A DNA stretch of 64,000 nt from positions 100,709-164,708 of the IMG/VR virus record IMGVR_UViG_3300009081_000009. One strand, written 5' to 3'. Position numbers and translations under genes: made by a program. Shown piece after piece: positions 3,467 to 33,635 of the stretch. The DNA is from a virus. Under the pieces are notes generated by a model that was given only the letters and a program-made list of their open reading frames with translations, had not been told where the DNA came from and ran no database searches. Numbering within the stretch: the stretch's first letter is position 1; each line of letters opens with the position of its first letter.

Positions 3467-3506
3467 TTTATTACCTTTAGTTAAGTAGTTTCGTTTCTTA
3501 CTATAC

Positions 3507-3535
3507 AATATAGATCATTTTCTTGCATTTGTCAA
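3507..3535 (-). promoter_or_regulatory. sigma70-type promoter of tRNA operon 1
   Basis: TTGACA-17nt-TATATT. Confidence 0.8.
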
Positions 3536-9882: not shown

Positions 9883-11598
9883 TTATCGTTTAAACATTAC
9901 AGCACCTGTCATACCAGAGTCATCATCCTCATCCTCATCATCGGATTGGTTGCGTTTTTTAGTATGATCTAGATATCTAGCGGAATCTTCGAGCGTTTTT
10001 AACTGCTTCTGTTTATTATCCATAGCTTCAAACGCCAATCGTTCCTCGTTGATTTGCTCTTCTGTTTTAAGGATGACATCATCTTCTTCTAATGATTTCA
10101 GATTCACTTCAACTACTTTACCATAATATAATGGAGATTGTAGATAAAATGGAACCCAATAGGCTGCTGTAATATGGTCATCATTATTACCACCCAAACC
10201 ACCCCAACGTTCTTGAGTAACTTTACCAAATGAATGCATCTCATTTATTGTCTGTCTATCTGGTATAGTCATAAACTTTCTTTGTACATATGTTTTAAAT
10301 AGAATACAGGCATTTTGCTTAGTTTTTTCAGATGCCCATAATCCCATATGATGACCCGATGGATCAAAATGCAATATATTTTCATATTCAACTTGATTAT
10401 AGAAGAATTTCATAGCAGCAATTCCGGGGCCGTTTTGTTCAATAATTAATGCAGGGTCATGATATTTTTTTAATATTACATAACATTTTTTACAAAACAA
10501 ATCAATATCCATTTTATTAGATGCAATAACAGCAACCTGATGCACTGTTATATTTGATTTTACTAAGAATATTTGTAAGACAGAATTATCTTGATGCACA
10601 CCATATCCAGAGTCTAATGATTCTACATATTCCCAACCTTCTGCCTCTAACTTTTCTTTTTTCAGTGGTGTTGAATAAATTCGTATGAAATCAGGTAAGT
10701 TAGCAATTTTCATTGGCTTCTTGCTTTCTAATGTTTTTAGGAAGTGATGGTCAATTAACGTAGATACGGAACCCACGAATTCACACATATATTCCTGATT
10801 GAATCTGATTTCACCAATTTTTTTCATTTCATCACGTGCCCATTCAGCAGTTCTACCCGGAACTGCATTCCATGGTATTTCACTGCGAATATAACCATTG
10901 GTGTCTTCTGCACTTATAGTACCAACATCTGATATATTACAAGCATCTTCCCACATTCTAAAGAAATGATTCATACCACATGGTGTTGATGTTATAATAA
11001 CTTTGGTTGTTTTACCTGATGAAATGGTAGGGAACACAGAAGCAATAAACTCATCTGCTATATGTGATTTAACGAATGCAAATTCGTCAAGATATAACAA
11101 GTTAATAGACATACCTCGAATACCATCAGGGGATGTAGCAGCACAAACGATTCGAGTTCCGTGTGAAAATTGTATGCCTCGTTTATTCCACTGTTTAACT
11201 CCCGGTTGCATCCAATATGGAAGGTTAATATATGAATCTCTTAACTGCTGTAATTGTTCCTGTGCTAGATTAAGTTTGTTTGCTAATATAGCTACTACTT
11301 TATCTTCATTAAATAATGCATACCACAATATAAATGCACGTGTAGTGGCTGATTTTCCTGCCTGACGTGGATATTTAACTATATTAAAACGGTTTTTATG
11401 AAATTCACCAATTAAATCTTCTTGGAAATTCCACATTTTAAATAATTGCATACCTTTATCTTTAGTATTGATATACACATAGTTTTTTATGAAATATATA
11501 GGATCTCTTGCACATTTAGCAAGTTCCTTAAACATCCAAGGCTCCATCTGAACCGATTCATTACCATCTCTTAAATTATTAATTCCATTAAATGCCAT
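9883..11598 (-). CDS. terminase large subunit (T4 gp17-like)
   Basis: PRQAGKS Walker A, LLYLDEFAFV Walker B, TSTP, FNQEY, nuclease DSGYG/IEQN/NDD. Confidence 0.95.
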   Translation of the reverse strand: MAFNGINNLRDGNESVQMEPWMFKELAKCARDPIYFIKNYVYINTKDKGMQLFKMWNFQEDLIGEFHKNRFNIVKYPRQAGKSATTRAFILWYALFNEDKVVAILANKLNLAQEQLQQLRDSYINLPYWMQPGVKQWNKRGIQFSHGTRIVCAATSPDGIRGMSINLLYLDEFAFVKSHIADEFIASVFPTISSGKTTKVIITSTPCGMNHFFRMWEDACNISDVGTISAEDTNGYIRSEIPWNAVPGRTAEWARDEMKKIGEIRFNQEYMCEFVGSVSTLIDHHFLKTLESKKPMKIANLPDFIRIYSTPLKKEKLEAEGWEYVESLDSGYGVHQDNSVLQIFLVKSNITVHQVAVIASNKMDIDLFCKKCYVILKKYHDPALIIEQNGPGIAAMKFFYNQVEYENILHFDPSGHHMGLWASEKTKQNACILFKTYVQRKFMTIPDRQTINEMHSFGKVTQERWGGLGGNNDDHITAAYWVPFYLQSPLYYGKVVEVNLKSLEEDDVILKTEEQINEERLAFEAMDNKQKQLKTLEDSARYLDHTKKRNQSDDEDEDDDSGMTGAVMFKR

Positions 11599-12292
11599 TT
11601 TCTACCCCCTCTGGGCATGGATATACATATTCACGTTTACCATGTTTAATAAACATGCTATCTGGATCATTCCATATATCATCAAATTTTGAATGTAAAT
11701 ATGGATATGACTCAATTATTATTTTGGTATTGAGTCTGTGTGCCATTGTTGGAAATATACCTGCAATGAACTCATATAATATATCATCACCCATAAAGGA
11801 TGCACCATGCATATATAACTGATCAATACCCATCCCTTTAATACTACATGGACTGCATCTATTAAATATAATATGGTTATTATTTGATAAAAGAATAACC
11901 TGCTTGTTACATCTAAGGACTGCGCATTGTAACCAAATAGGCAATGATTCATAATATCCAATCAGTCGAGTTCTATATACATCTGATTGCTTACGTGTTG
12001 GTGTTAATATAACGCAAACTTTATCTTGTTGTTTAAATAACAACTTCCATAATAGATGCGTATGTAATAACATCGTGTTATTTGTTTTTGCTTTGGATGC
12101 TATTATATTATATCGATTCTCATTTATCGAGTTTATAAACAATAAATCAGATTCGGTTAATTCGATATGCAAATACATAGACATGAAATATTCATATGAA
12201 TTTATGCATTTAATTATTTCATCAATCTGATACTTAGTTAAAGTGATATTATCAGATTCACTTCGCATGTTTGGATGCTCATTAATTGGCAT
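11588..12292 (-). CDS. degenerate terminase ATPase-domain paralogue
   Basis: Similar to gp17 N-domain (YESLPIWLQ, SIKGMGIDQLYM, GIFPT) but Walker A/B residues lost. Confidence 0.65.
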   Translation of the reverse strand: MPINEHPNMRSESDNITLTKYQIDEIIKCINSYEYFMSMYLHIELTESDLLFINSINENRYNIIASKAKTNNTMLLHTHLLWKLLFKQQDKVCVILTPTRKQSDVYRTRLIGYYESLPIWLQCAVLRCNKQVILLSNNNHIIFNRCSPCSIKGMGIDQLYMHGASFMGDDILYEFIAGIFPTMAHRLNTKIIIESYPYLHSKFDDIWNDPDSMFIKHGKREYVYPCPEGVENGI

Positions 12293-13247
12293 ATAAATCT
12301 CCCTTCATACCTTCGTAGAATGAACATTCATATTCCTGTAAGAATCTCTCTAAGCCCATTACTTGTATTGATTGACGTTTCCATTCGCTATCTCTTCCCG
12401 GTATTAATGTCCATGGAATTTTAATTGCGTGATAACCATTGAAATTAGTTATAGCATCTGCCCATAATTTAAAGAAATAATTAATACCATTCGGGGTTGA
12501 TGATATTATTAATTTTAAATTAGGATTATTCTCAGATATCTTATCTATTATTTTCATGAATTCATACACATTTGCTACTGGTGCATATGCAAATTCATCC
12601 AGAAATACGAAATCGAAATCAATCATTTTTATAGAATCTGGTGATGCAATTGTGTTAGCATATATTCTAGATCCATTTGAAAATTCTATATATCTCTTAT
12701 TATTTGATAAGCATCTGAATTTATCTTTGATATACGATGGTAAATGCTGATGCATTTTCTCTATTTTAAATAACAACTCAATGGATGCTGCTAATTTATG
12801 CGATGCTAATAGTGTATTTGTGTTTGGATGGGTTAAACAATAATGCAATATGTAGGCGCATAATATAGTTGAAATCCCAGCCTGTCTAGATCCATTTATT
12901 ATTAACTTGTTGTAATTTTCCAACTTAAATGTCAATTGTTTCTGAAATTCATATAATCTCAATGGTTGCAGTCCACAATCCTTAGTTATTATACTAACAG
13001 CATTCTCCATGAAATGTTCTGGGTTATTTATACATTTTTGTAAATCCGAGTTATTATCGGTTTTCACTTGTTCATCTTGTGATAACTCCAATCCTTCAAC
13101 AAAGTCAGCTATATCACTTGAATGATCCTCTGCGAATTGTTCGATTGCTTGTCGTATTATTTCAGATCGATTGACTTGGAATATCTCAGACAGCGAATCG
13201 ATTTGTTTATCGGTATCCTCTGTGATGTATATATTTATTCTTTTCAT
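12282..13247 (-). CDS. ribbon-helix-helix domain fused to terminase ATPase domain
   Basis: MKRINIYI...NRSEIIRQAI (RHH); SRQAGIS, FLDEFAY, SSTPNG, FLQEYEC. Confidence 0.8.
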   Translation of the reverse strand: MKRINIYITEDTDKQIDSLSEIFQVNRSEIIRQAIEQFAEDHSSDIADFVEGLELSQDEQVKTDNNSDLQKCINNPEHFMENAVSIITKDCGLQPLRLYEFQKQLTFKLENYNKLIINGSRQAGISTILCAYILHYCLTHPNTNTLLASHKLAASIELLFKIEKMHQHLPSYIKDKFRCLSNNKRYIEFSNGSRIYANTIASPDSIKMIDFDFVFLDEFAYAPVANVYEFMKIIDKISENNPNLKLIISSTPNGINYFFKLWADAITNFNGYHAIKIPWTLIPGRDSEWKRQSIQVMGLERFLQEYECSFYEGMKGDLYAN

Positions 13248-27033: not shown

Positions 27034-27537
27034 ATGACTAAATTAGAACGTGCTATGTTGGTAGCTGAAAAAGTTCATATGAATCAATCGTATGATATTT
27101 TTCCTTACATCTATCATATCAAACAGGTTGTAAAGGTTGCTCAGCATTTTGGATTTGATTCATCTATTCAAGAAGCCTGTGCATTACATGATTCAATGGA
27201 AGATGGCAATTTATCATACAATGATATTAAGAAATATTTTGGTGAAGAAGTTGCTGAATTGGTATATGCAGTTACTGATGAATTGGGTAGAAATAGAAAG
27301 GAACGCAAAGCCAAAACATATCCTAAGATCAGAGCTAATTGGAAAGCGGTAGCGGTTAAACTATGTGATCGAATTGCTAATATGCAACATTCAAGTGAAT
27401 ACACACCTGATATGATGAATATGTATAAAAAAGAACATGATGGATTTAAAACTGCTATATATAATCCAGATCATCCCGAAACTGAATTGAAAAAGTTATG
27501 GGAACACATCGAAGTAATTTTGAATTCAATAAAATAA
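27034..27537 (+). CDS. HD-domain (p)ppGpp hydrolase-like protein (SpoT/Mesh1 small alarmone hydrolase family)
   Basis: PYIYH, ALHDSMED, FGEEVAELVYAVTD, VKLCDRIAN. Confidence 0.8.
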   Translation: MTKLERAMLVAEKVHMNQSYDIFPYIYHIKQVVKVAQHFGFDSSIQEACALHDSMEDGNLSYNDIKKYFGEEVAELVYAVTDELGRNRKERKAKTYPKIRANWKAVAVKLCDRIANMQHSSEYTPDMMNMYKKEHDGFKTAIYNPDHPETELKKLWEHIEVILNSIK

Positions 27538-30498: not shown

Positions 30499-30527
30499 TT
30501 GACAAATGGTGAAAAATAACCTATATT
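30499..30527 (+). promoter_or_regulatory. sigma70-type promoter of largest tRNA operon
   Basis: TTGACA-17nt-TATATT. Confidence 0.8.
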
Positions 30528-30568
30528 GTATTTATAAGAGAAACGAAACACTTTAAAAAGGATTAGTC

Positions 30569-30655
30569 ATGCAAGTCACAACCATTACCACAGCCGATAC
30601 AGCAGCGATCATTGATCGCGGTACAATCGCAATGGGTACAGGAGTACATGCATAG
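30569..30655 (+). CDS. putative leader peptide MQVTTITTADTAAIIDRGTIAMGTGVHA
   Basis: aagga SD; 26 of 28 residues are T/A/I/G/V/D/M/R, the downstream tRNA set. Confidence 0.88.
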   Translation: MQVTTITTADTAAIIDRGTIAMGTGVHA

Positions 30656-30680
30656 CGGGGTCGTCTTATAATAGAGACAC

Positions 30681-30714
30681 AAACCCCGCAGGAAACTGTG
30701 GGGTTTTTCTTTTT
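30681..30714 (+). terminator. attenuator terminator (Ala/Gly/Met/Thr/Ile/Arg/Val/Asp group)
   Basis: aaaccccgcag-gaaa-ctgtggggttt-ttcttttt. Confidence 0.9.
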
Positions 30715-30765: not shown

Positions 30766-30839
30766 GGAAGTGTAGCTCGAATTGGTAGAGCAGATCCTTT
30801 GCAAGGATACGGTTAAGGGTTCGACTCCCTTCACTTCCA
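30766..30839 (+). tRNA. tRNA-Ala(TGC)
   Basis: atcc-ttTGCaa-ggat. Confidence 0.85.
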
Positions 30840-30894
30840 CTAACATAACGCTTGCCGTTGTGTGATGATTGATAATTTGGTGTGAATTTTTCAT

Positions 30895-30965
30895 GCGATT
30901 ATGTTGTAATGGTAGCAAATAACTTTGCCGAAGTTAAAGTCCGAGTTCGAGCCTCGGTAGTCGCT
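30895..30965 (+). tRNA. tRNA-Gly(GCC)
   Basis: taact-ttGCCga-agtta; U73. Confidence 0.8.
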
Positions 30966-31035
30966 TGTACTATTAGGAAAGACTAATCGTGTAAAGCTAC
31001 TCCGTCAGCCACGTTAAACATATCGAAGGAGCCAA

Positions 31036-31108
31036 GGGGATATAGCTCAGTTGGTAGAGCACTTGATTTGCACTCAAGAGGTCTGGGGTTCGAACCTCCA
31101 TGTCTCCA
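31036..31108 (+). tRNA. tRNA-Ala(TGC)
   Basis: cttga-ttTGCac-tcaag; G3:U70. Confidence 0.9.
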
Positions 31109-31109
31109 T

Positions 31110-31183
31110 AGCGGGGTAATAGCAGTTGGTAGCTTGTCAGGCTCATAACCTGAAGGTCGTGGGTTCGAGTCCCACCCCCGCAA
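31110..31183 (+). tRNA. tRNA-Met(CAT), initiator-like
   Basis: tcagg-ctCATaa-cctga; unpaired 1:72. Confidence 0.85.
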
Positions 31184-31343
31184 TACACTCCAAAAGCAGA
31201 TTGTCACTGCCTTTGAGCACGTAGCTCAATGCACAACAAGTAACAAGCGTTACTTGATAATAACAACGACAGAAACGGACTTGCGGTTGCAACCGCGAAG
31301 GCAGAAAAGTCCTGTGATGATGTTTCTTTTAGTCATCAATTAT

Positions 31344-31414
31344 GCATCTATCGTATAAAGGTAATACCAGTGATTTCCAATCATTAGCTCTCGGTTCGAT
31401 TCCGGGTAGATGCT
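31344..31414 (+). tRNA. tRNA-Gly(TCC)
   Basis: agtga-ttTCCaa-tcatt. Confidence 0.85.
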
Positions 31415-31586
31415 TAACATGTTTTGTTCATTTTAATGTTTACAAACTATCTTGAAAATATGTTTGCTAAAAATGAAACCGCCATCGGAACTGAGGATGG
31501 GTAGGACGGATGATCCACATCGAGTAATAGTTAAGCAAGCCTATTGTGTTTCTATGAGGGAATGTGTGTATCAGTTTCATTTTTAT

Positions 31587-31660
31587 GCGAAAGTAACTCA
31601 ATGGTTTAGAGTCCCTGTTTTCCAAACAGATTGTTGTGGGTTCAAGTCCCATCTTTCGCT
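31587..31660 (+). tRNA. tRNA-Gly(TCC)
   Basis: ctgt-ttTCCaa-acag. Confidence 0.85.
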
Positions 31661-31663
31661 TAT

Positions 31664-31736
31664 GCTGGTGTAGCTCAATAGGTAGAGCACTTGATTTGTA
31701 TTCAAGACGTTGTGGGTTCGATTCCTATCACCAGCT
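31664..31736 (+). tRNA. tRNA-Thr(TGT)
   Basis: cttga-ttTGTat-tcaag. Confidence 0.9.
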
Positions 31737-31793
31737 CTCGGTTCGGTTGTATGTTTGCTGTCCACTTCCACAGACGTAACATTCACTTTTTAT

Positions 31794-31866
31794 GCTAGTG
31801 TAGCTCAATAGGTAGAGCACTTGATTTGTAATCAAGCGGTTGGGGGTTCGATTCCCTTCACTAGCT
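31794..31866 (+). tRNA. tRNA-Thr(TGT)
   Basis: cttga-ttTGTaa-tcaag. Confidence 0.9.
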
Positions 31867-31870
31867 TTAT

Positions 31871-31945
31871 AGGCACGTAGCTCAATTTGGTTAGAGCGTC
31901 ACTCTGATACGGTGAATGTTAGTGGTTCAAGTCCACTCGTGCCTA
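31871..31945 (+). tRNA. tRNA-Ile(GAT)
   Basis: tcact-ctGATac-ggtga. Confidence 0.9.
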
Positions 31946-32050
31946 CTAATGTATAACCAGAGGCACAGGTTTAACTCCTGTTTACGGCATATGACTAGAG
32001 ATCAGAACCGTTGTATATTAACGTAAGATTACTGGCTCTATACATTTTTT

Positions 32051-32124
32051 GCCTGTGTAGCTCAACTGGATGTAGCACTATACTACGAATATAGAGGATG
32101 TGTGTTCGAATCACATCACAGGTA
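32051..32124 (+). tRNA. tRNA-Arg(ACG)
   Basis: ctata-ctACGaa-tatag. Confidence 0.85.
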
Positions 32125-32126
32125 CT

Positions 32127-32245
32127 CGCAGAATGAAGGAACAATAGCTGACACAATACTAAGGCTATCAACTAAACTTACCCCGCTATTAATGGGGATA
32201 TCCGAGGCATCGGTGTTGTAGGTGAAAGTCCTACTTCTGCAACCA
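32127..32245 (+). ncRNA. oversized tRNA-like RNA (119 nt) with encoded ACCA end
   Basis: cgcagaa/ttctgca-acca acceptor, gtagg-tgaaagt-cctac T-like arm, three internal hairpins. Confidence 0.55.
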
Positions 32246-32253
32246 ATTAATAT

Positions 32254-32327
32254 GCCTGTTTAGCTCAACTGGATAGAGCACACGGCTTCGAACCGTGAGG
32301 TTGAGGGTTCGAATCCCTCGATAGGCA
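32254..32327 (+). tRNA. tRNA-Arg(TCG)
   Basis: cacgg-ctTCGaa-ccgtg. Confidence 0.9.
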
Positions 32328-32344
32328 CTAGACAATAAACTCGA

Positions 32345-32417
32345 TGCGGGGTAGAGAAGTGGTTAACTCGCTTGGCTCATAACCAAGAGATCGACTGTTC
32401 AAATCAGTCCTCCGCTA
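32345..32417 (+). tRNA. tRNA-Met(CAT), initiator-like
   Basis: cttgg-ctCATaa-ccaag; unpaired 1:72. Confidence 0.85.
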
Positions 32418-32437
32418 CTAATTTAAAGGAATGTGTT

Positions 32438-32737
32438 ATGCGTAAAACTAAAAAAGGATTTAATATTGTTGCTGTAACACCCGAAGGTGTTGACGTAGTT
32501 GATGGTGTGTTTAGAGTTTTTGATAGTCTAGGAATGCCATTGGATGAAATTTTTAATCAATGCAAGCAGCGAAACTTAATGCCTTCATGGACGCATTTCT
32601 ATGATGATGCTAGAATACAAGGATGGAGTCATGAAACTATTATGAATAGATTAGAGACAACCATTCCTGATATATATGGTAAAGAATTTTCGGATGCTGT
32701 CATGTATAGATTACAAATTTATTCCGAATTGTGTTAA
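32438..32737 (+). CDS. hypothetical protein with AlaRS-like motif
   Basis: aagga SD; GVFRVFDSLGMPLD resembles AlaRS AFKLYDTYGFPLD. Confidence 0.6.
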   Translation: MRKTKKGFNIVAVTPEGVDVVDGVFRVFDSLGMPLDEIFNQCKQRNLMPSWTHFYDDARIQGWSHETIMNRLETTIPDIYGKEFSDAVMYRLQIYSELC

Positions 32738-32742
32738 AATTC

Positions 32743-32817
32743 GGGCGATTAGCTCAGTTGGTTTAGAGCAACTCCCTTACAAGGAGAAGGTCGTAGGTTC
32801 AACTCCTACATCGCCCA
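32743..32817 (+). tRNA. tRNA-Val(TAC)
   Basis: ctcc-ctTACaa-ggag. Confidence 0.9.
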
Positions 32818-32826
32818 TACAAATAT

Positions 32827-32900
32827 GCTGTAATAGCTCAGTTGGTAGAGCACTTCATTGGTATTGAAGAGGTCATCGGGTTCGAATCCCATTTACAGCT
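32827..32900 (+). tRNA. tRNA-Thr(GGT)
   Basis: cttca-ttGGTat-tgaag. Confidence 0.85.
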
Positions 32901-32919
32901 TAACTTAACAAGGATTTAT

Positions 32920-33099
32920 ATGGGAATTATTATAAAGATATTTATTATAATAGCTGGTATTACAATTGTACTTGGTATTTATAATAAAGTACGTGAGTCA
33001 AGGGAAAATAAAAAAATTATGGATGATGTTAAGAGACAAGTTGAAAAGAATAGACGACCTTCATCGGATTATACATTTCCTGATGAAAAGAGATTTTGA
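32920..33099 (+). CDS. small membrane protein
   Basis: aagga SD, hydrophobic N-terminus. Confidence 0.6.
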   Translation: MGIIIKIFIIIAGITIVLGIYNKVRESRENKKIMDDVKRQVEKNRRPSSDYTFPDEKRF

Positions 33100-33104
33100 T
33101 TTAT

Positions 33105-33191
33105 AGATGGATACTCGAATTGGTCTTCAGAGGGCAGTCTGATAAGCTGTTTGGTGCAAGCCTTATGTGGGTTCAAGTCCCACTCCATCTA
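33105..33191 (+). tRNA. tRNA-Ile(GAT) with long variable arm
   Basis: gcagt-ctGATaa-gctgt; V arm ggt-gcaa-gcc. Confidence 0.8.
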
Positions 33192-33197
33192 CTATAA

Positions 33198-33270
33198 GGA
33201 CACGTTTCCCAGTGGTTAAGGAGCCTGACTGTCTATCAGGATTTCGTGGGTTCGAATCCCATCGTGTTCG
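33198..33270 (+). tRNA. tRNA-Asp(GTC)
   Basis: cctga-ctGTCta-tcagg; G73. Confidence 0.85.
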
Positions 33271-33279
33271 TATTATTAA

Positions 33280-33353
33280 GGAGCCGTAACTCAATGGTTT
33301 AGAGTGCTACACTGTCTATGTAGATGTTGTGGGTTCGAGTCCCATCGGTTTCG
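33280..33353 (+). tRNA. tRNA-Asp(GTC)
   Basis: ctaca-ctGTCta-tgtag; G73. Confidence 0.9.
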
Positions 33354-33358
33354 TTTTT

Positions 33359-33433
33359 GCCGGATTAGCTCAGTTGGCTTAGAGCAGATGCTTCATACGC
33401 ATAAGGTCACTGGTTCAAGTCCAGTATCCGGTA
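33359..33433 (+). tRNA. tRNA(CAT), elongator Met or Ile2
   Basis: atgc-ttCATac-gcat. Confidence 0.85.
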
Positions 33434-33561
33434 TAAGTTTGAGAAGGGTTATTCTGCGTTCAACAGAGAAAACCTAAAGTTTTGACGGACTTACTTAGAG
33501 GACGATCTGAATCAAATACTAGTCACCATTCAGTGAGTCACTCTAGCTTCTCAATTCATTT

Positions 33562-33635
33562 GCCCAGATAGCACAACTGGTGGTGCGCTCGTTTCGTAAG
33601 CGAGAGGTTGATGGGTTCGAGTCCCTCTTTGGGCT
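33562..33635 (+). tRNA. tRNA-Thr(CGT)
   Basis: ctcgt-ttCGTaa-gcgag. Confidence 0.85.

Follow-up and report, generated by a model that had tools for sequence, protein, structure and literature searches.

A leader at positions 30499-30714 of an uncultured phage genome is likely to be a ribosome-mediated (leader-peptide) transcription attenuator that gates an operon of 19 tRNA genes, the tRNA block probably being made only when ribosomes decode the codons of the leader slowly. This reading is drawn from sequence analysis and folding models. The stretch of DNA analysed, 64 kb in all and referred to here as the window, is the 3′ end of the source record, a single contig of 164,708 bp. Its phage functions include a large terminase of T4 type and a class II-like ribonucleotide reductase (RNR). 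A search of INPHARED yielded no close cultured relative, DNA matches being at the level of tRNAs only, and the best protein matches among cultured phages there are distant, with about 36% identity for the terminase and about 41% for RNR.

The genome has 57 tRNA genes, and these lie in blocks that are sorted by amino acid (ARAGORN calls in the window). The block behind the leader, operon 5 (30766-33635, + strand), consists of genes for two Ala, three Gly, three Met/CAT, four Thr, two Ile, two Arg, one Val and two Asp tRNAs, with no further terminator within it. The initial annotation had counted 19 downstream tRNAs for eight amino acids, and the identities prove to be exactly those eight, Ala, Gly, Met, Thr, Ile, Arg, Val and Asp. 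Small protein ORFs are located amid the tRNA genes on the same strand, one of 99 aa at 32438-32737 with no Pfam family and one of 59 aa at 32920-33099. A consensus scan also gives a promoter-like site at 32905-32933 inside the operon, and internal sites of this type could drive the distal tRNAs independently.

Elsewhere in the window several other genes were noted. One ARAGORN prediction within the Leu/Ser block has an anticodon of four bases, tata (2519-2601, − strand); the tRNA could be frameshift-suppressor-like or else miscalled. Directly 3′ of the Glu tRNA block a 451-aa protein (24443-25798, +) has WGR, PARP regulatory and PARP catalytic domains, which make it a PARP-like enzyme encoded by the phage. 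Located 3 kb upstream of the leader (27034-27537, +) is the gene for a 167-aa protein that has a hydrolase domain of the HD_4 (RelA/SpoT) type; judged by that domain the protein is possibly a small alarmone hydrolase, which would bear on stringent control of tRNA promoters.

The anatomy of the leader can be read directly from its 5′ end. A sigma-70-type promoter (30499-30529, +), called by sigma-70 consensus, has its −35 element TTGACA at 30499-30504 and, after a 17-nt spacer, its −10 element TATATT at 30522-30527. It is one of four nearly identical copies of an extended promoter (3505-3535 on the − strand; 20028-20058, 23033-23063 and 30499-30529 on the + strand) with the same −35 extension, an A-rich spacer end and an extended −10. 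The corresponding pattern has five matches in the window against none expected, four of them preceding tRNA leaders, and the occurrence of the extended promoter in the window only upstream of four tRNA leaders suggests a dedicated promoter class. In the 5′ UTR a purine-rich 11-mer, agaaacgaaac (30539-30549), is a candidate element; it had earlier been described as common to operon 1, and its single other exact copy in the window (3488-3498, −) does indeed lie in the 5′ UTR of the leader of that operon, which carries Leu/Ser/His/Cys/Trp tRNAs. There follow a Shine-Dalgarno sequence, AAGGA (30558-30562), 6 nt 5′ of the start codon, and the leader ORF (30569-30655), with its ATG at 30569, 28 codons in all and a TAG stop at 30653-30655.

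The structural elements begin where the ORF ends. Region 2, GCGGGGT (30655-30661), is the 5′ strand of the antiterminator and starts at the last base of the stop codon. An inner 5-bp hairpin (30663-30678) is enclosed by the antiterminator, and the intrinsic terminator (30681-30714) has an 11-bp stem (dG −18.4; 5′ arm 30681-30691, 3′ arm 30696-30706) followed by a U-tract that extends to 30714. Region 3, ACCCCGC (30683-30689), is common to the terminator 5′ arm and the antiterminator. The first tRNA of operon 5 begins 52 nt past the terminator, an interval in which the consensus scan detected no promoter-like site. The order of promoter, Shine-Dalgarno sequence, ORF, terminator and tRNAs is thus correct, and with correct spacing, for a leader-peptide attenuator. 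Searches of Rfam at gathering thresholds or at E <= 1 returned no leader, T-box or other cis-regulatory match, only tRNAs.

Pairing of region 2 with region 3 around the inner hairpin (gtct/agac) had been proposed in the initial annotation and is borne out by folding: the antiterminator (30655-30661 with 30683-30689) has a dG of −18.0 and a z of −6.3, and 0 of 200 shuffles were equally stable. As region 2 sequesters the terminator 5′ arm, antiterminator and terminator are mutually exclusive. The consequences of ribosome position were modelled with 12 nt protected past the first base of the A-site codon and the nascent RNA folded up to the terminator loop. With any of codons 1-25 of the window leader in the A site, the model has 7 of the 11 bases of the terminator 5′ arm sequestered; over the last three codons and the stop codon only 5 and then 3 of them remain sequestered, and the truncated fold is destabilized from a dG of −18.0 to one of −0.2. 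In the four lineages for which the leader is available (below) the sequestered portion is 7/11, 9/11, 9/12 and 10/13 arm bases for A-site positions between codon 1 and roughly four codons short of the stop, and in all four the arm is largely freed with the ribosome on the last codons or the stop, a result that holds for a purely geometric model. The folded leader displayed neither a region 1 that could act as an anti-antiterminator nor an obvious pause hairpin. In untranslated nascent RNA, the ORF is predicted to fold on itself with the start codon paired to the end of the ORF, and the antiterminator still forms. Lack of a trp-style region 1 therefore makes read-through the predicted default when no coupled ribosome is present.

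Equilibrium folding was rejected as a predictor of the switch. For both the window leader and that of the related locus L034 the terminator is favoured in every modelled state (P about 0.95-0.99), and only the co-transcriptional truncated model switches; the comparison leaves out a third lineage, L066, where a forced mismatched pair distorted the numbers. Since the terminator wins at equilibrium, read-through would rest on an assumed co-transcriptional kinetic trap.

That the composition of the leader peptide is non-random is demonstrated in several ways. Translation of 30569-30655 upheld the earlier count of 26 of 28 residues cognate to the downstream tRNAs, with all eight amino acids represented, and the noted absence of Ser, Leu, Asn, Glu, Pro, Cys and Trp, to which Lys, Phe and Tyr can be added. 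Only Gln (codon 2) and His (codon 27) fall outside the set, so that 25 of the 27 post-initiator residues are cognate (binomial P = 3.3e-7 against a phage proteome background of 0.456), and 23 of 24 in what is effectively the stall window, codons 2-25. Met and Arg are each present as a single codon there (codons 22 and 17, respectively). When all six frames were searched for ATG-initiated ORFs of 20-45 codons and these were ranked by their fraction of cognate residues, the leader ORF came first of 1002, at 0.926, with the next at 0.684 and a mean of 0.38 (sd 0.10). The enrichment is less extreme than in leaders for single amino acids because the eight amino acids together make up 46% of the proteome. 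Periodicity of the RNN type, as a trivial explanation of this composition, was discarded: it does not account for the lack of every one of the frequent purine-first residues Lys, Asn, Glu and Ser(AGY), for which the chance, estimated from proteome frequencies, is about 1e-5 even under an RNN-only model.

Conservation of the arrangement is demonstrated with relatives recovered from IMG/VR and JGI metagenomes by terminase and RNR probes. An equivalent of operon 5 with the same eight-amino-acid tRNA set is present in three distinct lineages, L033, L034/L037 and L066, whose RNR identity to the window is 83%, 77% and about 71%, respectively; the leader ORF and terminator region of L037 are identical to those of L034. 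In each a leader ORF is located just 5′ of the tRNAs (L033 2559-2654; L034 3832-3942; L066 678-785), and cognate residues number 26/30 (P = 4e-6), 32/35 (1e-8) and 27/34 (6e-5) in the same order. The peptides range from 28 to 36 residues and their sequences are barely conserved across the lineages. Such divergence in length and sequence, with composition kept, makes it appear that selection targets composition and not a peptide product. Leader Arg codons also track the Arg anticodons of the array, AGA, for example, being confined to the leader of L066, where the array includes Arg-TCT. That all eight residues occur in the effective window of the four lineages is, under a restricted-composition model, only weakly beyond chance (p about 0.06). 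What had initially been annotated as a multivalent attenuator for eight amino acids is accordingly upheld in its anatomy, composition and switch geometry and not in the full number of amino acids sensed; sensing through the lone Met and Arg codons, and with it eight-way sensing, is plausible but unproven.

Each relative has a terminator together with a strong antiterminator (z −7.3 in L033, −3.6 in L034 and −7.4 in L066), region 2 being placed from −15 to +6 nt relative to the stop and the enclosed inner hairpins being unrelated in sequence. MAFFT was unable to align region 2, and pairs were instead mapped by script from the fold of each of the four sequences. On this basis there is one three-way compensatory change in regions 2, 3 and 4, G/C/G in the window versus A/T/A in L033, and the remaining differences in the paired strands are wobble-compatible. 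Other leaders of the genome are also retained by relatives: three genomes (G001, G002 and G003) keep the core of the Leu/Ser/His/Cys/Trp leader with synonymous codon changes, and G001 in addition keeps the Pro, Asn/Arg, Glu, Tyr, Lys and Gln leaders. In a distant relative (L049, RNR 55%) the tRNAs are unsorted and there is no leader. Further probing brought little: an upstream 273-aa protein found no relatives, RNR alignment in IMG/VR gave no additional loci, and the embedded 99-aa ORF retrieved one truncated distant locus only.

Some features of individual relatives deserve separate mention. The operon 5 leader of L066 starts about 7 nt past the −10 box and is without a Shine-Dalgarno sequence (665-690), and its mRNA may be leaderless. 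The first tRNA-like gene after the terminator in the same locus (876-985) has an insertion after the anticodon and gets no ARAGORN call. In L002-L004 the terminase match (10001-12482) spans about 2.48 kb versus 1.72 kb in the window, which suggests that the terminase genes of these relatives contain an insertion, either an intron or an intein.

Operon 5 is one of nine tRNA blocks in the genome, and each of the nine is preceded by a short ORF enriched in the amino acids of its own block. With summed enrichment z-scores as the measure, the true assignment of leaders to blocks is the best of 362,880 permutations. The off-diagonal enrichments fit nested downstream blocks, in that Gln is also enriched in the Lys leader and Glu in the Asn/Arg leader. 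In seven of the nine the terminator is strong (−15.6 to −20.8 kcal/mol) and the switch is laid out in the same way; among the leaders compared, those for Phe and Pro lack a strong terminator. The Phe-rich short ORF, which is outside the window (C1 about 18602-18516, −), reads into the first of two tRNA-Phe genes and may work unlike the other leaders, or not at all. Between the terminator of the Gln attenuator and three tRNA-Gln genes, likewise outside the window, there is a small ORF for a CxxC…CxxC zinc ribbon (C1 about 17760-17670, −).

We infer from these features how the switch would operate kinetically, in which direction it would regulate and what physiological signal it would answer. 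Polymerase would start at the strong promoter, and a ribosome would load on the nascent leader and trail it. On fast decoding the ribosome would reach the last codons or the stop and cover region 2, with the result that the terminator would fold and the transcript would end before the tRNAs. Were the ribosome to lag at any of codons 2-25, region 2 would be available to pair with the emerging 5′ arm of the terminator, with read-through into the tRNA genes. Whichever codon caused the delay, region 2 would be unoccupied by the time region 3 was transcribed, so that many amino acids could be sensed at once, and as any such delay would uncouple the ribosome, the leader would be an OR gate over eight amino acids. 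The likely purpose is feedback control by the phage of its own tRNA supply. Expression would be high while charged cognate tRNAs are limiting, e.g. in early infection, on mismatch to host tRNAs or after their loss, and would be shut off when charged tRNAs are abundant. Feedback on tRNA supply is the sensible reading because extra tRNA cannot cure amino-acid starvation.

Alternatives differ in what they retain of this scheme. The same sensor could have amino-acid starvation as its signal, the phage reading the amino-acid status of its host and tuning tRNA output or the timing of downstream genes. What is sensed in trp, his and thr attenuation is charged tRNA, and a sensor of this kind cannot by itself tell tRNA shortage from amino-acid shortage; the RelA/SpoT-type HD hydrolase gene at 27034-27537 is, in addition, a hint of dealings with the stringent response. 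A starvation signal is nevertheless unlikely: the feedback would be purposeless, extra tRNA giving no relief, and the strict pairing of leaders with blocks, together with the Arg codons that follow the anticodons of the array, fits tRNA supply better. A different proposition, to be rated slightly lower again, is that the structure is a fixed leaky stop or insulator and the ORF no sensor, its match to the tRNAs being a by-product of purine-first periodicity or of efficient translation with phage tRNAs. Seven of the eight amino acids do have purine-first codons, so that any RNN-periodic sequence would be enriched in them, and the terminator is thermodynamically dominant. However, equally frequent residues with purine-first codons are missing from the peptide (above), the antiterminator is kept in four lineages despite differing intervening sequence and with a compensatory change, region 2 is consistently at the stop codon and the same logic extends across nine operons.

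Two further explanations dispense with decoding speed altogether. T-box and protein-mediated attenuators, too, are built around a pair of mutually exclusive hairpins, and a translation-independent switch whose leader RNA binds uncharged tRNA, as in a T-box, or a protein would be compatible with the structures. It is very unlikely given that even the permissive Rfam search brought up no T-box or cis-regulatory family, that one RNA binding tRNAs of eight identities is implausible and that the compositional signal sits in the reading frame. Least credible, and barely to be entertained, is that the ORF is a functional micropeptide gene ended by the terminator with the tRNAs transcribed from elsewhere; it has a good Shine-Dalgarno sequence and is conserved as an ORF in relatives, but its product diverges strongly in length and sequence while composition is kept, and the 52 nt ahead of the first tRNA harbor no promoter-like site.

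Leaders that sense more than one amino acid are familiar from enterobacterial amino-acid operons: thrL senses Thr and Ile, the leader of ilvGMEDA Ile, Val and Leu, and that of ilvBN Val and Leu. The phage leader resembles them in being short, translated and rich in the relevant codons, in its intrinsic terminator and overlapping antiterminator, in a predicted switch set by ribosome position and in addressing more than one amino acid. It differs in its phage setting, in lacking sequence or covariance-model similarity to the Rfam leader families and in the number of amino acids, eight versus two or three. The regulated genes are also of another kind, 19 tRNAs as opposed to the biosynthesis, transport or aminoacyl-tRNA synthetase genes of the trpL/hisL/thrL/ilvL class. 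It departs from the trp paradigm in having no region 1, with read-through predicted for the untranslated leader; like trp, it has to switch kinetically. A further parallel is the E. coli pheM leader, which attenuates pheST, the genes for phenylalanyl-tRNA synthetase, in response to cognate charged tRNA and so is likewise a leader-peptide attenuator on a component of the translation apparatus, although it regulates a synthetase, senses one amino acid and is cellular. With T-box elements there is the shared principle that tRNA charging feeds back on terminator read-through via a competing antiterminator; a T-box, however, binds one specific uncharged tRNA directly and free of translation, whereas the signal of the phage leader is in its reading frame. 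The tRNA region of phage T5 (NC_005859) is also tRNA-rich, with strong sigma-70 promoters and interspersed small ORFs. It was considered as a precedent and set aside, since its tRNAs are unsorted, its small ORFs have no compositional match to the downstream tRNAs and its promoters abut the tRNAs. A full-text search of the literature found no report of an attenuator or of leader-peptide control ahead of tRNA genes.

To our knowledge bacterial tRNA genes are controlled at the promoter, through growth rate and stringent control, leader peptides playing no part. A wider proposal can be put forward tentatively, and at somewhat below even confidence: nine leader-peptide attenuators may be decoding-speed sensors that partition all 20 amino acids among them, each turning on its own tRNA block when decoding of the matching codons slows, with the fifth a true eight-input OR gate, host tRNAs being replaced on demand by a previously undescribed type of tRNA gene regulation. 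If functional, the leader would mean that phages regulate tRNA genes by direct feedback from decoding speed, would explain why the tRNAs of these phages are sorted by amino acid and would extend the valency of attenuators from three amino acids to eight; it would also provide compact modular sensors of individual tRNA supply, usable as reporters. On-demand replacement, if true, would be pertinent e.g. after degradation of host tRNAs or their cleavage by anticodon nucleases. A functional leader of this type would also help to address the occurrence of complete tRNA sets in large phages, and it would open the competing ideas of host tRNA loss, codon mismatch and defence evasion to direct testing.
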